Virus record (IMG/VR): IMGVR_UViG_3300028920_000068
Span: 6,427-70,426 of that record
DNA: 64,000 nucleotides
DNA from: a virus
Strand: one strand, 5' to 3'
Shown here: piece after piece, positions 8,174 to 64,000 of the stretch
Layout: each line of letters begins with the position of its first letter
Position numbering within the stretch: the stretch's first letter is position 1
Notes under the pieces: model-generated
The model's database searches: none
Seen by the model: only the letters and a program-made list of their open reading frames with translations
Told to the model about the DNA's origin: nothing
Made by a program: the position numbers and the translations under genes

Positions 8174-8521
8174 ATGGAAAAAATGAAATCCTTTAAATAT
8201 TTTATTGAGATAATCGTACTAAGTCTTCTTGTTGCTTATGTAACTACAGCTTGTTTTCTTTATTTCGAAAAAAGGAATAAAGAATATTACGATAATTCTC
8301 AGATGTGGATAATGAGTCAAATTGATGATTTGAAAAATAGAACAAAACAAGCAAATGGTTGTATAAATATAAAGGGTAGCGATTCTTTATATGCAATTAA
8401 ATATTTGTTGAATGAAGGTTATTGCGTTCAAAAAGAATTGTCTTCGCAAGATTCCGACTCGTCAAACAATATAGTAGCTGTTTTAACTGCTATAAAAAAT
8501 GTTCAAAAGGAGAATAAATAA
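8174..8521 (+). CDS. Hypothetical membrane-anchored protein
   Basis: N-terminal hydrophobic helix; SD AAGGAG. Confidence 0.55.
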   Translation: MEKMKSFKYFIEIIVLSLLVAYVTTACFLYFEKRNKEYYDNSQMWIMSQIDDLKNRTKQANGCINIKGSDSLYAIKYLLNEGYCVQKELSSQDSDSSNNIVAVLTAIKNVQKENK

Positions 8522-8724
8522 TGACTTCAGATGATCTTAAAAGAGAAATGTTAATAGAGTTTAGTGTTAGTATGTTGATTTTATTTTTACTTGTTTCAAT
8601 ACCATGCTGGATAATATATGGAATGGATAAAATAACTTATATTGAGTATATTCAAAATGGTTGGAGTTATTGTTGGGGCGTTAGTATTGATTGGGTTAAA
8701 CATTTTTTATCAAGATTAATTTAA
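8521..8724 (+). CDS. Small hypothetical membrane protein
   Basis: Hydrophobic segment; TAATG coupling. Confidence 0.55.
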   Translation: MTSDDLKREMLIEFSVSMLILFLLVSIPCWIIYGMDKITYIEYIQNGWSYCWGVSIDWVKHFLSRLI

Positions 8725-8734
8725 GGAGTTAATT

Positions 8735-8920
8735 ATGAAATTTAATAAAAAACAATGGATTATTAACCAATGGCTTCCACCAAATATTGTAAAAGAAATT
8801 AAAAATCATGAGGGTTGGTTGCACTTATCTACGACGATTCCGAATAATGAGGATGGAACAATTGAAATATCACCTATAAAGGGATGTCAATATTTTATTA
8901 ATGGTACAAAGGTAAAATGA
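8735..8920 (+). CDS. Hypothetical protein
   Basis: SD AAGGAG; ends within repeat copy 2. Confidence 0.5.
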   Translation: MKFNKKQWIINQWLPPNIVKEIKNHEGWLHLSTTIPNNEDGTIEISPIKGCQYFINGTKVK

Positions 8921-11429: not shown

Positions 11430-12089
11430 ATGACTAGATTAAAAGAATTAAAAAAATATATTCAAGAAAATAGAGAAACTGGATTAGCGTATTGCTCTCA
11501 GATTTTTAATCTGACCCGCTTAAATGAGCCTGATCTCTTTTATCATTTGGTGTTTTGTTTATTGGTTCCTGCGGGTAATGCTAGAAAAACCGATCAAGCC
11601 GTAAAATTATTAAAGGAAAGAAATTATTTGAATAAGTACATAGATGATATTTCCTTATATTATCTTATTCGGTCTTATGTTCGGTTTCCTAGACAAAAAG
11701 CTGTAAGACTCCACAGTTTTAAAGCAACCGCTAAGAGTTTTATTAAAGGTTTAAAATCTATGCTTGAGGGAAACACAGAGGCTTCTGAACTCAGAGATTA
11801 CTTGAGAAATCGGGTAAAGGGTATGGGTTATAAAGCCTCCAGTCATTTCTTACGAGATATTGGGGTCTTAAACTTGGCTATACTTGATACCCATGTATTA
11901 AAGTATAAACCATATTTTATGCCAAAAAATAAACAAGATTATGAACCGGGAAGAGCTAAACATTATTTAGAAATGGAAAAATATTTTTCTAAATGGGCTC
12001 GAAAAGAATTTGATATGGCCCCGGCACACCTTGACTGGTTTGTTTGGTGTAAAGAATCTGGAAATCCTATAACTGCACTGGAGTATTAA
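11430..12089 (+). CDS. ogg: 8-oxoguanine DNA glycosylase/AP lyase (thermostable Ogg family, HhH-GPD)
   Basis: VFCLL, VRFP...KA, VKGMGYKASSHFLRDIG...LAILDTHVL, LD..VW. Confidence 0.85.
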   Translation: MTRLKELKKYIQENRETGLAYCSQIFNLTRLNEPDLFYHLVFCLLVPAGNARKTDQAVKLLKERNYLNKYIDDISLYYLIRSYVRFPRQKAVRLHSFKATAKSFIKGLKSMLEGNTEASELRDYLRNRVKGMGYKASSHFLRDIGVLNLAILDTHVLKYKPYFMPKNKQDYEPGRAKHYLEMEKYFSKWARKEFDMAPAHLDWFVWCKESGNPITALEY

Positions 12090-14423: not shown

Positions 14424-15185
14424 ATGAGCTTAGACTCTATGCCAAAAATTGTTAAAGATTATGCTAAATATATTGAATATACTAATCTAAAATCCCCGAA
14501 CTCTAAACAAATTAAAAAAATTGTGCAAACAGCCAATGAGAGAGGTTATCTTGGTTTATGTTTACAGCCGGGAGATCTAGGTGTAGCGATTAAATATAAA
14601 CGACCTAAATTAAAATTAATTACGGTAGCTGGATTTCCACCAATCCATTCTTTTAATTTATTCGCAGATAACCGAAATAAACGATTGCATTTCGTACTGG
14701 GTTTCTATCGAAAGAAGGATATTGAAGAAATTAATACAATTATTGATAATGGTATCGCTGATGAATTAGATCTGGTTTTCCCTATGTATTGGTATGCCCG
14801 GGGAAAGTTTACTCGAATCTATAAGTTTCTTTCTGGAATTAAAAAAAGATATAGAAAACCAGTTAAGGTTATTATTGAGCTTGGAACAATCCTGAATCGA
14901 GATGTGGTACTCTATGAGGTTATTGATTTACTAAAACAATCTAGTGTAGATTATCTTAAAACCAATACAGGCTTAATTAAACAGCCATTTAAAAATTTAT
15001 ATGCTTCAATTTTTCATACTAAATTATTGATGCGTGATATGAATATCCAGATTCCAATTAAGGCTTCTGGAGGAATTCGGACAGAAGAAGAGGTGCAGAA
15101 ATTAATTCAAGCAGGCGTACATAGAATTGGGACAAGTTCTGTCCCTAAAGTCACACAAAAAGACGAGGTAAAGAAAAATGATTAA
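14424..15185 (+). CDS. deoC: Deoxyribose-phosphate aldolase
   Basis: VAGFP, ADELDLV, VKVIIE, YLKTNTG, IKASGGIR, RIGTSS. Confidence 0.85.
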   Translation: MSLDSMPKIVKDYAKYIEYTNLKSPNSKQIKKIVQTANERGYLGLCLQPGDLGVAIKYKRPKLKLITVAGFPPIHSFNLFADNRNKRLHFVLGFYRKKDIEEINTIIDNGIADELDLVFPMYWYARGKFTRIYKFLSGIKKRYRKPVKVIIELGTILNRDVVLYEVIDLLKQSSVDYLKTNTGLIKQPFKNLYASIFHTKLLMRDMNIQIPIKASGGIRTEEEVQKLIQAGVHRIGTSSVPKVTQKDEVKKND

Positions 15186-20148: not shown

Positions 20149-20223
20149 TATAGTGTAGTGTTAATGGTAGCACGCTTGACTGTTAATCAAGAAGTGGTGG
20201 TTCGAATCCACCCATTATAGCCA
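20149..20223 (+). tRNA. tRNA-Asn (GTT)
   Basis: Acceptor TATAGTG/CATTATA, anticodon arm CTTGA-CTGTTAA-TCAAG, GGTTCGAATCC T-arm, encoded CCA. Confidence 0.92.
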
Positions 20224-24464: not shown

Positions 24465-25418
24465 ATGATTGATTTTTCTAATAAAAAAATTCTAGTCCTT
24501 GGAGATATAATTTTAGACGAATATATTGAAGGAGAGGTGTCCCGTATTTCTCCTGAAGCCCCTATACCCATTCTGGATAAACATAAACAATATTATCGTC
24601 TTGGTGGGGCGGCTAATGTGGCTCGGAATATAGCCAGTTTAGGGGCTAAGGTATGGCTTATAGGCCGTATTGGTAATGATTCTGCTGGAAAGAGAGTTAT
24701 AAAATTACTTACCAAAGATAATATTTATGTGGATCTTTTATTGAAAGATTCAAAGATTCCAACTATTTTAAAGACCCGATATGTGGCAAATAACCAGCAG
24801 CTTCTTAGGGTGGATTATGAGGATCGAACTTCGGTAATTCAAAATAAAAAATTTCAAAAATTATTAAACCAAGATCTTGATCGACACATGCGATATTTTG
24901 ATGGTATGATTATTTCCGATTACAACAAAGGAGTTGTTTATCCTAAGCTTTTACAACATATAAGTTGTATCCAAAAAAAATATCAGAAAATTCTTACCGC
25001 AGATACACATAAAATCGACTGGACTCCTTTTAAGGGTTTTACATGCCTTACGCCAAACCTTAAAGAATTTCAGACAGCGTGTAATGTATTTGTAAACGGA
25101 CTCCATTTATTATCCCGTTACGGCAAACAGTATTTAAAAAAGTATCGTTTAAAACAATTATTAATTACTTTAGGTCAGAATGGAATGTTATTGGTGTCCG
25201 AAAAAAGAACGAAATATTTAGCCTCACAGAAAAGATCTATTATTGATGTAACTGGTGCAGGCGATACTGTAATTGCCACCTATACACTGGGTTTGGCTGC
25301 GGGATTACCCCCGTTAAAAGCAGCTATTCTGGCAAATCGAGCAGCCGGAATTGTAGTAACAAAACCCGGAACCGCCACCGTCACTACGGAGGAATTATGG
25401 TCAAAGAAAAAGATCTAA
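24465..25418 (+). CDS. hldA: D-glycero-D-manno-heptose-7-phosphate kinase (HldE/RfaE domain I, PfkB family)
   Basis: ILVLGDIILDEYIEGEVSRISPEAPIP, GGAANVA, QQLLRVD, ISDYNKG, TPNLKE, DVTGAGDTVIA. Confidence 0.9.
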   Translation: MIDFSNKKILVLGDIILDEYIEGEVSRISPEAPIPILDKHKQYYRLGGAANVARNIASLGAKVWLIGRIGNDSAGKRVIKLLTKDNIYVDLLLKDSKIPTILKTRYVANNQQLLRVDYEDRTSVIQNKKFQKLLNQDLDRHMRYFDGMIISDYNKGVVYPKLLQHISCIQKKYQKILTADTHKIDWTPFKGFTCLTPNLKEFQTACNVFVNGLHLLSRYGKQYLKKYRLKQLLITLGQNGMLLVSEKRTKYLASQKRSIIDVTGAGDTVIATYTLGLAAGLPPLKAAILANRAAGIVVTKPGTATVTTEELWSKKKI

Positions 25419-25818: not shown

Positions 25819-26358
25819 ATGAAGATAACTGCCGATATAATTAAAACTGCTGTTTTATCATATTATAGATACCAAAGACAAATGATCTGTACTGATGAGT
25901 GTTGGTGTGGAATTTCTGGGGAAACTTGTGATGTCTTAGTGGATTCAGGAAAATATTTTTATGATATTGAAATTAAAATTAATAAATATGATTTATGGAA
26001 AGGCGAAGCCAAAAAACGAAAACATTATATATATAATCGAGCTATTATAAGCGATCATTTACACCACCCAAATTATTTTTTAATTTGTGTTCCGTCTTCC
26101 TTAATAAACGAGGCCCAAAAATGGGTACAAGAAACGAATACCAATTATGGTATAATTGAATTCTCCGAAGATCTTTGGAATCGTATGGGTAAAGCTAAAT
26201 GCTTTTGGCGATTTGAAGATTTGATTCGAATAAAGCGCAACCCCAAAAAACTCCGGGAAAATAGGGGTACTAGATTATCTGAAGCTTTAGTAAAGAGATT
26301 ATGCTCTGCTTATACAACATTACGACAGAAAAATTTAAGAAAAGGGGTCTGTGGCTGA
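25819..26358 (+). CDS. MmcB-like PD-(D/E)XK protein
   Basis: CDVL...DIEIK...D....K...PNYFLICVP...YGII. Confidence 0.6.
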   Translation: MKITADIIKTAVLSYYRYQRQMICTDECWCGISGETCDVLVDSGKYFYDIEIKINKYDLWKGEAKKRKHYIYNRAIISDHLHHPNYFLICVPSSLINEAQKWVQETNTNYGIIEFSEDLWNRMGKAKCFWRFEDLIRIKRNPKKLRENRGTRLSEALVKRLCSAYTTLRQKNLRKGVCG

Positions 26359-26432
26359 GTGGTTAAAAGTAACGGTCTGTAAAACCGTCGGGTCTTTGCC
26401 CTTCGTAGGTTCAAATCCTACCGGGCCCACCA
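26345..26432 (+). tRNA. tRNA-Tyr (GTA)
   Basis: Acceptor GGGTCTG/CGGGCCC, anticodon arm ACGGT-CTGTAAA-ACCGT, long variable arm, GGTTCAAATCC, encoded CCA. Confidence 0.92.
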
Positions 26433-58980: not shown

Positions 58981-59393
58981 ATTTTTACCGTATTTCTAAT
59001 CACTATTAGGCTAATTCTTATCGTGAGCTACGCTCACGCCGGAATTATTCTTTATAAAATGGGGTTTAACCTCGTCCGGCAAGCCGTACTCGCCCCATTA
59101 TATATTAATATTATTATTATGTTATATAATTTTTACCTTAATTTAGGGTTTTATTGGTTTTTCCGGCCCTACCCCCACCAAGACAGAGATCGGCCCACAG
59201 GGAGCCTCTCAGCCAAACTGAGGGGTATCTGAAGATCTCCAGAGATACCCTAAATTTCAAAAATTACAATCTCTCCAGAAATCAAAAAATTTCCCAGAAA
59301 ATTTACCTATTTTAGTTCGATAGATTCGATAAAAAGGTCATATATTACTTTTCCTCACATAATATTACCGAACCATAAATAAGGTTCGATAAA

Positions 59394-59435
59394 TTTACCA
59401 TACAAAAATCATTATAATACCACTTGTATGGTAAA
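59394..59435. repeat. Perfect 12-bp inverted repeat
   Basis: TTTACCATACAA-18 nt-TTGTATGGTAAA. Confidence 0.8.
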
Positions 59436-59547
59436 ACTGTTCGCACCAAGGCAAGTAATCAATAGAAAGATCTTTCTGGAGACTTTAGAGGCTTAGAGAC
59501 TGACTGGCTGGCCTAGCCTGCGCTTTGGGGCTCCGGCTCCGGCCCAC

Positions 59548-59587
59548 TTGTACGGAAACATACAATCCTTTGTATGGAAAAGTACAA
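59548..59587. promoter_or_regulatory. Tandem operator-like palindromes TTGTA-N8-TACAA
   Basis: 59548-59565 and 59570-59587, 22 bp apart. Confidence 0.55.
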
Positions 59588-59761
59588 TTCTCAATCTTTT
59601 GGGAGGTCAATTTTATTGTGCGTGTCAACAAGTGCTTGGGTAGACAGTCTTAAATAATAAGTCTTATACTTCTTTTATTATGAAATAGATACAGATATAT
59701 TTATTATCTCTTTTCTTATAATGATATATATAATAAATTACAGAGGTTTCTTCCGGTATAC

Positions 59762-59855
59762 TACTGTAATATACTGTAATTTACTGTAAGCAAGCATAAG
59801 CAGATAATGGTAATATACTGTAGATTTACTGTAATCTACTGTAGTTTACTGTAAT
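59762..59855 (+). repeat. Seven TACTGTA(A/G) iteron-like repeats
   Basis: Starts at 59762, 59772, 59782, 59816, 59827, 59837, 59847. Confidence 0.85.
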
Positions 59856-59984
59856 TATCTGATTATATTATATAAGAGATAATAATATTATAGAGGGATG
59901 ATTGGGGCCGGGATCAAAAAAAATTTTTTTAAGCCATTTCTCGACGGGAGCGGAAACTTTTTTTAAAAAAATTCGCTGGAGGTC

Positions 59985-60013
59985 TTGACAGCCGCCGGGC
60001 TGGATGCTATGCT
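59985..60013 (+). promoter_or_regulatory. Early sigma70-type promoter
   Basis: TTGACA-17 nt-TATGCT with TG; A/T tracts upstream. Confidence 0.7.
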
Positions 60014-60183
60014 TGAACCAGAAAGGCGGGCCGAAACATGAAAAACAAAGTCACATTGCGGGAAGCGGAACGGATCAGCCGGGCGTTTAATCATAACTTA
60101 TATTGGATCAATGCAATGGTCAAGCTTGGAATGATCCAGCCAAGTGAGGCCGGATATATAATCATTAAAGATCGGATATAATT

Positions 60184-60378
60184 ATGCTATCGAATATTAT
60201 CAGATATATGTTAGAAATAATTAATTTTGCCGGGCGGGTTATGGTTTGGCTATTCGGGGCTGTTTGTGAGTCTATTATGTTTGTGGCCTTGTTTGTCTGC
60301 GGGGCTTTGGGTTTCGGAGTATTTATATTATTCATGTTGTTTATGCTGGCGGCTTGCGTCGTAGCTATATTATTATAA
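60184..60378 (+). CDS. Small hydrophobic membrane protein
   Basis: Almost entirely hydrophobic 64 aa. Confidence 0.45.
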   Translation: MLSNIIRYMLEIINFAGRVMVWLFGAVCESIMFVALFVCGALGFGVFILFMLFMLAACVVAILL

Positions 60379-60400
60379 TCCAGTAAAAGGAGGTAATTCA

Positions 60401-60565
60401 ATGATTACAATTATTATTAATGAAACAGGCAAGTATCCGATTTATTATGTAGTAAATCAGATCAGCGGGAAATGTTACGGATCATATCTGAACCGGGAAA
60501 CGGCGGAGGATCGAGCGGAAGCTTTAAACGCTGGCGTTACGTTAAATAATCTTATTAATGCTTAA
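60401..60565 (+). CDS. Small hypothetical early protein (54 aa)
   Basis: SD AGGAGGT, MITIIINETGKYPIYY... Confidence 0.55.
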   Translation: MITIIINETGKYPIYYVVNQISGKCYGSYLNRETAEDRAEALNAGVTLNNLINA

Positions 60566-61059
60566 TCAGTAACCGGAGTATTAAGCAATTACAGGAATCC
60601 GGGGAGTATTAACCACAGTATTTTCAAGGGGTTATGAGAAAAAGCCGGATAATTCCCGGGAAATTACAGTCTGCCGGGGCCAGTAACGGGGCATTATTAT
60701 ATATACATATAAGCTTTCCCGGTATAAATTACCCTATTACCTATCCTATTACTGGTAATGATAACGGATAAACTATACTTTTATTACCGGGAAACTATAT
60801 TACTCGGATCAGGAAATAATACTGTTTTTATCCAGTAAAGGCCCGGAGTCTGTAAGGGTTACGCTTGCCGAAATTCCGGGATCAATGGGATCACTATGCG
60901 CTCAATTATTCATAACAAACGGGATTTTAAAATATCCAGTATTTTTAATAAGAATTACCGGGATTTATGGCGGGAATTGCCGGGCTTTTTATCTAGTTTA
61001 TTCCGGGGCCTTGCTCAATTATAAGCCGCCGGATTTTTCAAAAATTTTTGGGCCGGGGC

Positions 61060-61088
61060 TTGACAAACAGGGCCCGGCATGTTATACT
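61060..61088 (+). promoter_or_regulatory. Early sigma70-type promoter of ardC
   Basis: TTGACA-17 nt-TATACT with TG. Confidence 0.8.
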
Positions 61089-61150
61089 TTCAGCAGGTCG
61101 GCAAGGGGCCGATCAAACATTAAACGGGTAAATGCGGGAGGGTTTAAAAA

Positions 61151-62080
61151 ATGAAAAACTCGGATATTTATCAAACTATTACGGACAGGATTATTCAAGG
61201 ATTACAAAAGGGGCGTATTCCGTGGCGGAAGACTTGGAAAGCCGCAACAGGTATGCCAAAGAATTTTATTAACAAAAGACCTTATAGGGGCGCAAACATT
61301 TTAGTACTTTGGTTTCACATGATGGCCTATGGATTCAGCCAGCCTTATTATTTAACATTTAAACAAGTAAATAAATTAGGCGGCAAGGTTAAAAAAGGCT
61401 CTAAGTCGGAATTGGTGATATACTGGCAATGGCTAGAGCGGGAAACCGGGGAGCGCAAAAAAGACGGATCAGCAAAGGTCAAACGAATTCCATTGTTAAG
61501 ATATTATCGAGTATTTAATATTGAACAAACAGAAGGTATCGAATACGAAAAGCCAGAAGATAAACAGATGCCGGAATTTAAGCAGATCGAAGCGGCGGAA
61601 AATTTTGTCAAAAATTATCAGGACAGGCCGCCTATTCAGCACGGCGGAGGCCGGGCTTGTTATAGTCCGACAGATGATAAAATTCAGATGCCGAAACCGG
61701 AAACTTTTGAATCTGAACCCGCCTATTATGGCACGTTATTTCACGAATTAACGCATAGTACGGGCCACAAGTACAGACTCAATCGGGATGATGGGATGGC
61801 GGGATTTTTCGGGGATGAAAATTACAGCCGGGAAGAATTAACCGCAGAAATCGGCACGGCTTTTATATGCGCCTTAACCGGGATCAGTAACGAAAAACTT
61901 GAAGAAAATCAGCAGGCATATATAAATAACTGGATTAGTAAATTAGAATCTGATCCAAAAATGGTTATACTTGCCAGTGCCCGGGCGCAAAAGGCCGTTG
62001 ATTATATGCGAGGGATTACACACGATCAGAAAACCGCCGAAGAGTCCGAAGAGCGGGACACCGCCGGGGCTTCAGCGTAA
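61151..62080 (+). CDS. ardC: ArdC-family antirestriction protein (ssDNA-binding domain + zincin metalloprotease)
   Basis: IYQTITDRII..L..G..PWRKTW, YRGAN, YLTFKQ...GG.VKKG, VFNIEQ, ACYSP..D.I.MP, FHELTH, YSREEL.AE. Confidence 0.92.
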   Translation: MKNSDIYQTITDRIIQGLQKGRIPWRKTWKAATGMPKNFINKRPYRGANILVLWFHMMAYGFSQPYYLTFKQVNKLGGKVKKGSKSELVIYWQWLERETGERKKDGSAKVKRIPLLRYYRVFNIEQTEGIEYEKPEDKQMPEFKQIEAAENFVKNYQDRPPIQHGGGRACYSPTDDKIQMPKPETFESEPAYYGTLFHELTHSTGHKYRLNRDDGMAGFFGDENYSREELTAEIGTAFICALTGISNEKLEENQQAYINNWISKLESDPKMVILASARAQKAVDYMRGITHDQKTAEESEERDTAGASA

Positions 62081-62090
62081 ACCCAACCGC

Positions 62091-62116
62091 CGGGGCCGGG
62101 AGCAATTCCGGCCCCG
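62091..62116 (+). terminator. GC-rich hairpin with GCAA tetraloop after ardC (weak U tract)
   Basis: CGGGGCCGGGA-GCAA-TTCCGGCCCCG. Confidence 0.55.
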
Positions 62117-62150
62117 TACCCGTATATTATTAAAATAAAGAGGTGAAATT

Positions 62151-62561
62151 ATGTTACAAACAAAAAAGGCAGAATGGTTTTTTGAATTTGGACAAGAGTT
62201 AAAACAGGCGGGCTTTCGGGTTTTTTCAAGTCCGGGCAGTAATTATGGATATTTTGTAAAAGATAATAAAATCGGATATTTTGAAGCTTCTGATTTTGGC
62301 TGGAATTTTTCGACAGTGCATAAGCCATGCCGGGAATATGGCACGGGCTTTTCAATTCACCGGGAAAGGCCGGAGGCGACGGTTAAAATGGCTGAGGATT
62401 GTTTAATTGTTGCGCCGGGATGGGCGCATGTTGGCGGCGGGCGTAGATGTTCGGCTTGCGGAAGTATTACACACCGAAATAATCAAGTAATTAAATATAA
62501 ATCATGGGAGGATTATATTTCTGATCCTAGAAATCAATGGCGGGAATATTTAGAAATTTAA
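62151..62561 (+). CDS. Hypothetical early protein
   Basis: SD GAGGTG; STVHKPCREYGTGF motif. Confidence 0.6.
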   Translation: MLQTKKAEWFFEFGQELKQAGFRVFSSPGSNYGYFVKDNKIGYFEASDFGWNFSTVHKPCREYGTGFSIHRERPEATVKMAEDCLIVAPGWAHVGGGRRCSACGSITHRNNQVIKYKSWEDYISDPRNQWREYLEI

Positions 62562-62582
62562 TTCATAAAAAAGGGGTAAATT

Positions 62583-62999
62583 ATGAAAATTATTTATATG
62601 TGTAATTGTTGCGGAAAAGAAAACATCAACCCTAAAAAAATGCTACAAATTACATACAATAAAAGAATAATTCATAAGTGCGAAGAGTGCCAGAAAATCC
62701 GGGGCCCATTTTACCCGGTCGAAAAGTTTGATGCTATAAATAAATATGATGTTATTATTCAGGGCCCGGACAAAGCGGATTTATACACAGACTTAAAAAA
62801 TGCCGGGTGTAAAATTGATAATCACGAATCAGACTTATATGTTAAAGCAACGGCAATAAGTTTTGAAATTATCAAAACACATGGTTTAAAATTTGACGGG
62901 ATACAGGCCGGGCAATTCTGGCATCAGGAAACAAAACAACGCTGGTTTGAAATCCCGTTTGCCTTTGCGCCTTATTGGAATAAAAAACTTAAAAAATAA
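62583..62999 (+). CDS. Hypothetical early protein (CxxC pairs; IDNHESDLYVK motif)
   Basis: SD AAGGGG. Confidence 0.6.
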   Translation: MKIIYMCNCCGKENINPKKMLQITYNKRIIHKCEECQKIRGPFYPVEKFDAINKYDVIIQGPDKADLYTDLKNAGCKIDNHESDLYVKATAISFEIIKTHGLKFDGIQAGQFWHQETKQRWFEIPFAFAPYWNKKLKK

Positions 63000-63022
63000 T
63001 TTAATAAATAAAGGAATAAATT

Positions 63023-63727
63023 ATGTATATTCAAAATTTAATACTTGAAGTTACCCGGAAGTGTAATTTTTCATGCGCTCATTGTTTGCGGGGTAATGCT
63101 CAAAATAAAAATATTGATTTTGCCGTGATTGATGCGTTATTTAATAATAATATTGATTATATTGGCATGATTACATTTTCAGGTGGGGAGCCATCATTAT
63201 ACCCGGAGGCCATTAATTATTTTATAGATCAATGCCAGAGCCGGGGCGTGGAGGTCGGCGATTTTTATATAGCCACGAATGGCGGCAAGTCCAGCGGGAG
63301 TTTAGAATTTTTAACAGCAGTAATGCGCCTATATTGTTTTTGTTCTAATAATGAAATGTCGCAAGTTGAAATATCAAAGAGCGATTACCATGCTGGACAG
63401 CAAGACGAAGAAGCAAAAAAGCGGCTTCAATGCTTGCGTTTTGCTGGAGAAAGACAGCATTTAGATTATCGTTATTTAATACATGAGGGCCGGGCTAAAG
63501 TATTGAACGAATTAAACGGCACGATAGACGAGGCCCGGAGGATCGAACCCGAAAAACAATTACGCCGGGATGAAGATGAGAATATTTTGACGGATGAATT
63601 ATATATTAATTGCAAAGGGGATATTTGTTTATCTTGTGATTTGTCTTATAAAAGGCAAGATAAAAACAAGATCGGAAATATTTTGACTGATCGGTTAGAG
63701 GATTTAGCAGTTGTAACAGTTGAGTAA
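63023..63727 (+). CDS. Radical SAM protein
   Basis: EVTRKCNFSCAHC (CxxxCxxC), TFSGGEP, ATNG; C-terminal YINCKGDICLSC twitch-like region. Confidence 0.9.
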   Translation: MYIQNLILEVTRKCNFSCAHCLRGNAQNKNIDFAVIDALFNNNIDYIGMITFSGGEPSLYPEAINYFIDQCQSRGVEVGDFYIATNGGKSSGSLEFLTAVMRLYCFCSNNEMSQVEISKSDYHAGQQDEEAKKRLQCLRFAGERQHLDYRYLIHEGRAKVLNELNGTIDEARRIEPEKQLRRDEDENILTDELYINCKGDICLSCDLSYKRQDKNKIGNILTDRLEDLAVVTVE

Positions 63728-63753
63728 TGGCGGAAAATTTTTTAGGGTTAGGC

Positions 63754-63782
63754 TTGACAAACGGTGGATGATGTGTTATACT
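63754..63782 (+). promoter_or_regulatory. Early sigma70-type promoter
   Basis: TTGACA-17 nt-TATACT with TG. Confidence 0.8.
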
Positions 63783-64000
63783 TGAAGGACAAACGGGAGG
63801 GGGAAAATGAAAATTCAAAATCCTATTAGATCAAGAATTGATTCAATTTTAAAATTAACAAATTTATCTTCAAATGTAGAGATCGAACATATTGCTGAGG
63901 CAATACAATATAGACCTTTGAAATAATTAATAAATTTTAATAGGAGAAAATAAAATGAAAAAATTAGAATTAATAAGATATTCTACAATGAATAGTTGGA

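Follow-up and report, generated by a model that had tools for sequence, protein, structure and literature searches.

An oriented island of CCGG-cored GC clusters in the putative early operons of a marine sediment phage

The window analysed here is a 64,000-nucleotide (nt) stretch of DNA, comprising bases 6427 to 70426 of the 70,426-bp virus record IMGVR_UViG_3300028920_000068 (G000). The record is classed as linear, has a guanine–cytosine (GC) content of 35% and a CheckV completeness estimate of 77%, and the only sequencing run holding the stretch is a marine sediment metagenome. Close to the right end of the window, a region of about 3.7 kb is crowded with the tetramer CCGG, flanked mostly by purines on the + strand. 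This is a real local feature, and it is best described as an oriented CCGG-cored GC-cluster island in early operons, the region being predicted to be early from its promoters and gene content. The enrichment, its independence of coding, its orientation, and its repeat in a relative are observed. With a probability of roughly 0.55, the array is kept by selection. More tentatively, its + strand words may be read by a host helicase-nuclease of the RecBCD/AddAB type, in analogy to Chi sites.

A preliminary description of this DNA had counted about 48 CCGG in roughly 3.7 kb, about 44 of them reading CCGGG or CCGGA and about 32 CCGGG, and about 14 CCGG in the first 4 kb of the window. Recounting gives 48, 44, 32, and 14. 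The 48 sites lie between positions 59908 and 63565 and are followed by G (32), A (12), C (2), or T (2), with a median spacing near 46 bp. The enrichment is local rather than uniform, as the other 66.7 kb of the record contain 153 CCGG, corresponding to 8.5 expected per 3.7 kb (Poisson P ~1e-20). It also persists under controls for composition and codon usage. In 1000 dinucleotide-preserving shuffles of the island, CCGG occurs on average 14.9 times (standard deviation (sd) 3.3, maximum 28). Seven open reading frames (ORFs) were taken as genes in the island, and the remaining 754 bp were counted as non-coding. The genes contain 28 CCGG, in comparison with 13.1 (sd 2.7) in 2000 synonymous-codon shuffles that keep the proteins and the codon usage of the island, so synonymous positions are biased to make CCGG. 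In the same shuffles, 9.4 coding CCGG[G/A] and 2.0 coding GCCGGG are obtained, compared with 27 and 12 observed. The coding sites are spread over frames 0, 1, and 2 (8, 7, and 13, respectively). CCGG is densest in non-coding DNA, with 20 sites in 754 bp, and the sites include the spacers of both promoters at 59985 and 61060, as had been described. A DNA-level cause beyond codon usage is thus supported.

The excess is specific to the word, though not entirely. The first-order ratio of observed to expected counts in the island is 3.20 for CCGG, compared with 1.17 for ACGG, 1.38 for GCGG, 0.99 for TCGG, 0.88 for CCGA, 0.92 for CCGC, and 0.95 for CCGT. GCCG and CGGG reach 2.4 to 2.5, and these are overlaps of CCGG. 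CGCG is absent (13.9 expected), and GCGC is found at 0.68 of expectation. The highest-order Markov model expects 42.6 CCGG in the island, because the CCG and CGG counts it is built on are themselves mostly CCGG. The island is a compositional shift with a further word-specific excess. Around the sites, no information was detected beyond a 6-nt core, and no period between 5 and 200 bp exceeds a random-position null. In the record as a whole, CCGG is not depleted (201 sites, 220 by the highest-order model, and 2.6 to 8.5 times the number expected from base composition).

The wider signal consists of runs of G and C. Between 59880 and 63600 there are 85 GC-only runs of at least 5 nt, i.e., 22.8 per kb, compared with 6.5 per kb elsewhere and about 6 per kb expected for the GC content of the island. 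Isolated G/C and GC pairs are below expectation, and the G/C state of neighbouring bases is correlated at 0.27, compared with 0.09 in other + strand genes. A comparison of 474 windows (3.7 kb each, 39 phage records) puts the island windows first in G/C clustering, in CCGG density, and in the ratio of CCGG to the base-composition expectation. The + strand bias of the pentamer reported earlier is real, but the basic unit of the signal is not this pentamer: GC-only runs form an island, and CCGG is its core. A search for a longer repeated unit in the region recovered only three promoters and a set of TACTGTA repeats. In the codons, third positions go to G/C after a G/C second base. Compared with two other gene sets, the share of GGC plus GGG among glycine codons is 0.65 (0.30 and 0.22), that of CGG 0.49 (0.20 and 0.17), that of CCG 0.47 (0.17 and 0.15), and that of ACG 0.32 (0.11 and 0.17). 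The shares of AAG, GAG, and TTA are unchanged. Host-like codon adaptation was rejected, as only codons with G/C at position 2 shift, and those for Leu, Lys, Glu, and Val do not.

The words are strongly oriented. Within the island, [C/G]CGG[G/A] occurs 69 times on the + and 17 times on the − strand, and GGG runs 78 and 19 times. The strand ratio is 25:1 for GCGG[G/A], compared with 40:13 and 36:9 in other genes, and 19:1 for GCCGGG, compared with 8:5 and 4:2; GGCGG and AGCGG are likewise oriented and raised. The ratio of G to C is the same in the island (1.44) and in other genes (1.42). Purines flank CCGG on both sides at 32 of the 48 island sites, in comparison with 53 of 147 sites on the coding strand of other genes (Fisher p 3.6e-4). 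The ratio of purine-flanked to pyrimidine-flanked sites is 32:4, compared with 53:32 elsewhere (p 0.004).

Phages are expected to shed short palindromes, and in G000 this loss is extreme. CGCG is absent from the genome (40 expected), as is TCCGGA (15 expected). Together with TCCGGA, the hexamers TGATCA, GATATC, CATATG, CCATGG, ATCGAT, and GTTAAC are all missing, with 11 to 21 of each expected. Mixed 6-bp palindromes amount to 0.22 of the shuffle expectation in the island and to 0.24 to 0.45 in eight other windows, while AT-only palindromes are not depleted. The island thus runs opposite to the general habit of this phage, as the preliminary description had held. RCCGGY (R, purine; Y, pyrimidine) accounts for only one of the 201 CCGG sites, although about 17 are expected from independent flanks. 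RCCGGY, TCCGGA, and CGCG are presumably the sites of Cfr10I/BsrFI, BspEI, and BstUI/FnuDII, respectively. As RCCGGY is purged, a CCGG that follows a purine must precede a purine, and as TCCGGA is purged, a CCGG that follows T cannot precede A. Therefore, many CCGG[G/A] arise from flank avoidance and the purine-rich sense strand alone. Avoidance accounts for much of the 3' preference for G/A, but not for the whole purine-flank bias. An origin of the island as a by-product of stronger palindrome avoidance in first-entering DNA was rejected, as the island value of 0.22 compares with 0.24 to 0.45 elsewhere, and GATC, CATG, and TCGA are not low. An island set against such extreme palindrome loss points to a force stronger than restriction pressure, the more so with a relative repeating the oriented form.

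The features of the region are as follows.
59908..63568, + strand: CCGG/GC-cluster island, with 48 CCGG and 85 GC-only runs
59985..60013, + strand: promoter-like P1, TTGACA-17-TATGCT with GCCGCCGGGC in the spacer, predicted by consensus match only
60038..60565, + strand: three small ORFs of 47, 64, and 54 amino acids
60566..61150, + strand: spacer without a credible gene, the densest part, with 15 CCGG in 585 bp
61060..61088, + strand: promoter-like P2, TTGACA-17-TATACT
61151..62080, + strand: ardC, 309 amino acids, 8 CCGG
62092..62115, + strand: GC hairpin GGGGCCGG...CCGGCCCC directly 3' of ardC
62151..62999, + strand: two ORFs of 136 and 138 amino acids (CxxC pairs), function not assigned, 10 CCGG
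63023..63727, + strand: radical SAM protein of generic type, 234 amino acids, inside which the island ends at about 63568
63754..63782, + strand: promoter-like P3, homologous to P1 and P2 and without CCGG, the first DNA past the island

The island sits at the start of the rightward genes, immediately right of a divergent AT-rich region, and the structural genes are located on the − strand, running leftwards from about position 59,300. The + strand also encodes a family A DNA polymerase fused to a UDG-like domain, RecA (2.3e-48), an SbcC-like ATPase, a metallophosphoesterase, a primase-helicase, a portal protein, and several nucleotide and sugar enzymes. The coincidence with the antirestriction gene ardC, which had been pointed out before, is borne out by matches to Pfam ArdcN (3.9e-37) and MPTase-PolyVal (1.7e-36) and to the PHROG anti-restriction family (1.1e-85). 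A homologue search with the 136-amino-acid protein gave three distant matches, and an Atlas search gave no lead for the 136- or the 138-amino-acid protein. The last 160 bp of the radical SAM ORF (63568-63727) contain no CCGG, and their codons are typical of the rest of the genome; this composition switch inside the ORF may be a recombination breakpoint. P1, P2, and P3 belong to three homologous 50-nt promoter cassettes (59965-60014, 61040-61089, and 63734-63783), each consisting of an A/T tract, TTGACA, 17 nt, and TATACT or TATGCT. A 5.1-kb contig from the same run contains a copy of P3 (42 nt, 3 differences) between different flanks. Fourteen loci with the same promoter pattern proved to be unrelated and CCGG-poor.

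A search with ArdC identified a locus, L001, whose protein is 72% identical in the alignment, and 40 metagenome loci at up to 61% identity. L001 belongs to the IMG/VR record G001 (92,567 bp, rated complete), whose proteins match those of G000 at about 50 to 90% identity (tblastx). The two are collinear from the DNA polymerase to the early region, with about 19 kb of G001 between them missing from G000, and the ORFs of 64 and 54 amino acids, ardC, and part of the 138-amino-acid ORF follow in the same order. A hairpin similar to that behind ardC is found after ardC in L001. The second relative, the 11.9-kb contig L004, shares the late genes, the ORFs of 47, 64, and 54 amino acids, and ardC; it is the only one with a relative of the 47-amino-acid ORF. 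As this gene order is shared, the island is not a foreign insertion, and a horizontally acquired foreign module was rejected on the same grounds.

The early region of G001 has an ordinary GC content and 4.8 CCGG per kb, compared with 3.0 elsewhere in that genome. Its first-order outliers are CCGGG (21, 3.6 expected), CGGGC (21, 4.0 expected), and GCCGG (18, 3.4 expected), with three of the 21 CCGGG lying in a tandem repeat. GCCGGG and its complement occur 14 times in the 8.6-kb early region, compared with 8 times in 53.4 kb and 3 times in 27.0 kb, which is an enrichment of about 12-fold. Purines flank CCGG on both sides at 25 of 41 sites in the early region and at 55 of 235 elsewhere (p 3.6e-6). 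In G001, RCCGGY is not avoided (43 of 302 CCGG sites, 48 expected); therefore, the flank bias of this phage is not a side-effect of avoidance. Within ardC, G000 has 8 CCGG and G001 has 5, three of them at the same codons, and the synonymous sites have diverged, as third positions agree at 109 of the 215 codons with identical residues. The GC content of the gene is equal in the two phages (0.43 and 0.425), and it contains 24 GC-only runs in G000 and 12 in L001. Hence, the search for the same enrichment in related phages, suggested earlier, succeeded in G001, where the signal is weaker, but not in L004, where CCGG is scarce and the flank bias is lacking. None of the other ArdC loci, among the 42 ArdC-bearing loci screened, has a comparable local CCGG peak at low GC.

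The comparison with G001 also bears on methylation. The preliminary description had proposed that CCGG is a modification target marking self, installed by a C5 or N4 methyltransferase, or that the unmethylated sites form a decoy titrating a methyl-reading or restriction protein of the host. In favour of this, CCGG is well known as a methylation site, the phage is under restriction pressure, and G001 encodes one C5 methyltransferase (142 bits, E 7e-43, G001:C1:60562-61440). At the corresponding place G000 has three small ORFs (8174-8920), and no match to PF00145, PF01555, or PF02086, i.e., to C5, N4/N6, or D12-type methyltransferases, was found in this 77%-complete genome of 70 kb. The self-marking idea and the methyltransferase search suggested for the rest of the genome thus came out negative within this record. 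The nearest solved structures to the G001 enzyme, M.HhaI and M.HaeIII, do not settle which sequence it recognises. CGCG is kept in G001 (70, 74 expected), in contrast to G000, and so is TCCGGA (35, 32 expected). This fits a G001 enzyme that protects CGCG or CpG rather than CCGG, and the enzyme tracks CGCG, not CCGG density. The two relatives form a natural experiment on the two principal strategies against restriction, one with a methyltransferase and CGCG kept, the other with neither a methyltransferase found nor CGCG. Furthermore, an oriented flank is not expected of a palindromic methylation site, and a decoy fails because the cognate 6-bp sites are already purged, leaving nothing to protect. 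Methylation or a decoy is accordingly considered improbable.

The preferred, Chi-like reading was chosen because the signal is word-specific, strand-biased, and frame-independent, peaks where the sequence is least constrained, is confined to the P1 and P2 units, and recurs in weaker form in a relative. The array would consist of strand-oriented short G-rich GC-only words with the core purine-CCGG-purine, most commonly GCCGGG, and a minor form GCGG[G/A], and it would overlie the first two early transcription units, genes and spacers alike. A nuclease entering from a double-strand end at the right would meet the words and be switched by them from degradation to production of a 3' tail, which the phage RecA could use for recombination-dependent replication. 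CCGG would serve as the core because avoidance leaves no other GC tetramer with a CpG, CGCG and GCGC being purged, and the purine flanks would be due in part to the purging of RCCGGY and TCCGGA. That the array is selected, which enzyme reads it, and from which side this enzyme enters are inferred. Gam families were not found in G000 or G001.

Chi clusters of this kind are described for other phages. According to a survey of lambdoid phages (PMC12315714), host Chi sites are numerous in phages LLS and MD8, where they cluster towards one end of the genome and almost all point the same way; in MD8, all 32 Pseudomonas Chi sites share one orientation. The clusters of LLS, MD8, and P1 resemble the island in that a G-rich short word is in excess on one strand and in one part of the genome, regardless of codon usage; they differ in that the word is a known 8-mer host Chi at about one site per 1 to 2 kb, in phages without recombination genes (PMC12315714). 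In the island, by comparison, the word has 5 to 6 nt and a palindromic core, reaches about 13 per kb, and occurs in a phage with RecA.

Three further systems are comparable in part. GATC clusters at oriC (SeqA) and at P1 pac span 150 to 250 bp and need a methyltransferase. They are alike in that a 4-bp palindrome is locally crowded, contrary to the trend of the genome, whereas the island extends over 3.7 kb, has asymmetric flanks, and comes with no methyltransferase found. EcoP15I sites of T7 occur in one orientation only, through avoidance of the other orientation, and are likewise strand-biased short words shaped by restriction; the island is a local excess, and avoidance (RCCGGY, TCCGGA) accounts for its flanks but not its density. 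Yeast mitochondrial GC clusters are mobile elements of 20 to 50 bp, non-coding and rich in CCGG/GGCC, in AT-rich DNA. Here too short GC-only clusters are scattered through AT-rich DNA, but the runs of the island have 5 to 14 nt and are embedded in reading frames.

Several points weigh against the Chi-like reading. Both a match of the words to the Chi sequence of the host and the entry of a nuclease from the right are tentative, G000 being a linear fragment. The orientation is inseparable from the direction of transcription. The words are heterogeneous, comprising a palindromic CCGG core with purine flanks as well as GCGG[G/A], GGCGG, and AGCGG, and every GC-only tetramer apart from those purged is elevated, which a single recognition word leaves unaccounted for. 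CCGG is also about 1.7 to 1.9 times over first-order expectation genome-wide, compared with 3.0 to 3.2 times in the island. The early region of L004 has only 12 CCGG and no purine-flank bias (4 purine–purine, 6 purine–pyrimidine, and 2 pyrimidine–pyrimidine). With CCGG occurring every 77 bp on average, the sites are about ten times as dense as the Chi sites of LLS. Finally, the phage encodes its own RecA and an SbcC-like ATPase, while the Chi-rich phages in the lambdoid survey are those without their own recombination genes (PMC12315714).

Of the options raised in the preliminary description, only a Chi-like signal and a loading site stay attractive. If a helicase-nuclease reads the words, recombination-hotspot words of uncultured bacteria can be inferred from their phages. 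If the array reading is true, it discloses a very short Chi-like word of an uncultured host, and the phage deploys about 13 such words per kb so that the DNA exposed first is protected or recombined. A wider form, slightly less probable than the reading itself, is that a family of uncultivated marine sediment phages marks its immediate-early DNA with dense purine-CCGG-purine words on the sense strand, read by a strand-tracking host enzyme, in a genome otherwise stricter in palindrome loss than almost any on record.

A neutral compositional island is nearly as likely as the Chi-like reading. Possibly, a neighbour-dependent mutation or repair bias favours G/C beside G/C without any reader protein, or the early module was replaced from a related phage of different composition, raising GC, CpG, and GC runs. 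CCGG would then be the commonest GC word remaining after CGCG, GCGC, RCCGGY, and TCCGGA were purged. The highest-order Markov expectation (42.6 of 48), the rise of nearly all GC-only tetramers, and the genome-wide over-representation of CCGG all agree with this, as do the sharp edges, the right one lying within the radical SAM ORF. The homologous P1 to P3 are possible crossover points, and the 5.1-kb contig shares P3 with different flanks. Moreover, the GC content of early genes varies among the relatives, that of ardC being 0.43, 0.425, and 0.294, while that of late genes does not. In the AT-rich early region of L004 (GC 0.28 to 0.32), GC-only runs are 2.2 to 6.1 times over expectation, compared with 1.6 times in its late genes, with a different word content, many being of the GGCC type. 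However, G001 and L004 have orthologues of the early genes in collinear order, and the same oriented word class is enriched in the early region of G001 at ordinary GC. No donor-like sequence was found, with 0 DNA matches to 59000-64000 in the phage collection and 0 of 42 ArdC loci matching at low GC, and in G/C clustering the island ranks above all others of the 474 windows of 39 records. The transition neighbours of CCGG are not depleted (CTGG, CCAG, TCGG, and CCGA at 1.3 to 1.5 times base expectation), so no very-short-patch-type repair drive is seen, and this candidate was rejected. A local mutation or repair bias would make the island an unusually clean case of sequence evolution that depends on neighbouring bases and is limited to a single operon. 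The claim that the motif is positively selected thus stands in part: the local excess is real and its flank form is conserved in G001, while selection is only inferred, next to a neutral origin.

An assembly chimera, in which 3.7 kb from a co-occurring phage strain were misjoined, was considered as well. The metagenome contig ends 430 bp past the island, and the assembly graph splits at P3 and again beyond, where short contigs of high depth occur. Yet across either edge the order of genes agrees with that in G001 and L004, the sediment run contains every word sampled from 59600-64000, and an identical 136-amino-acid protein is encoded on a recorded 71,670-bp contig, making a chimera very improbable, the least probable of the explanations considered.

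As all words are co-oriented with transcription in units that have strong predicted promoters, and GGG runs are found 78 times on the + and 19 times on the − strand, a signal at the level of RNA or transcription was considered. The words could be sites of an RNA-binding factor, polymerase pauses, or R-loops priming replication by the repeats at 59751-59861. Pausing keeps translation coupled, and the R-loop variant involves G-clusters on the non-template strand. The island begins at P1 and ends ahead of P3, eight TACTGTA repeats are found in AT-rich DNA immediately upstream of it, and the phage has a primase-helicase, PolA, and RecA. Against this, two CCGG sites lie upstream of the P1 start, the G/C skew of the island equals that of other genes, and there is no periodicity. 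Rfam gave no matches at E up to 1, and the spacer 60566..61150 in particular has no Rfam match and a fold z score of −1.37. Over the island, fold z scores average −0.46 (control genes, +0.28), with 3 of the 36 windows falling below −2; structured or sponge RNA was rejected on these values. A CsrA-sponge reading fails too, as GGA occurs 95 times with 83.5 expected from dinucleotides. Overall, an RNA-level signal appears unlikely.

Slightly less likely still is an array for a duplex DNA-binding protein of the host or of the phage, in the latter case possibly one of the uncharacterised island proteins, coating, anchoring, or marking the early DNA. Clustered short sites act in a comparable manner at P1 pac and oriC. 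The sites are dense, at a median spacing near 46 bp, and extend over coding and non-coding DNA including the promoter spacers. An inverted pair of GCCGGG (61052) and CCCGGC (61073) brackets the −35 box of the predicted P2, and in both P1 and a promoter of L001 a CCGG occupies the same place in the spacer. In contrast, the lack of information outside the 6-nt core and of helical periodicity argues against such an array, and for a dimeric binder the combination of a palindromic core and asymmetric flanks is unusual. No DNA-binding family could be recognised among the island proteins, and there is one near match to the Noc site (60651). Matches to the Noc-binding consensus number 12 at up to 3 mismatches in 64 kb, compared with 6.5 expected; a Noc/ParB-type array was rejected with one 1-mismatch site in the island. 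That site is a 15-nt near-palindrome at 60650-60664, AATTCCCGGGAAATT, the sole close match. A periodic wrapping signal was rejected, as no period of 5 to 200 bp rises above the random-position null. Anti-silencing by breaking of AT tracts was rejected as well, as clustered G/C would lengthen AT runs.

Further searches gave little. Scans of viral contigs with the 587-amino-acid tail protein, the radical SAM protein, and the 136-amino-acid protein returned no match, and the primase-helicase matches named phages only at below 30% identity. Five nucleotide and sugar enzyme genes are located at 2332-2823, 1006-1515, 11430-12089, 14424-15185, and 24465-25418. They encode a protein with a dATP/dGTP diphosphohydrolase N-domain and proteins resembling a nucleoside 2-deoxyribosyltransferase, an Ogg-type glycosylase, a DeoC-type aldolase, and a heptose-7-phosphate kinase. 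The last scores 330.6 bits, under the cut-off of 345, and a genome-contig scan with it gave no match and no close cellular relative. PurZ and TGT families were not found in the phage, and a modified base is thus not demonstrated. Genes for tRNA-Asn (GTT) and tRNA-Tyr (GTA) are located at 20149-20223 and 26345-26432, respectively.

The contig ends of G001 (L001 14343-14536 and the other end) hold a 520-bp array of coding tandem repeats of 33/66 bp. The 101-bp "terminal repeat" of G001 lies inside this array and is therefore probably an assembly overlap. In G000, the AT-rich divergent region before P1 contains about eight direct copies of TACTGTA[A/G] (59751-59861), mostly 10 bp apart, which resemble iterons or operators. 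A second oriented word, CAGTA(A), which corresponds to the complement of a segment of this repeat, is in sense-strand excess in the early regions of all three phages. It occurs at 60379, 60565, 60680, 60831, 61885, and 62238 of the window, and in G001 CAGTA is found 24 times, with 5.8 expected and 2 on the other strand.

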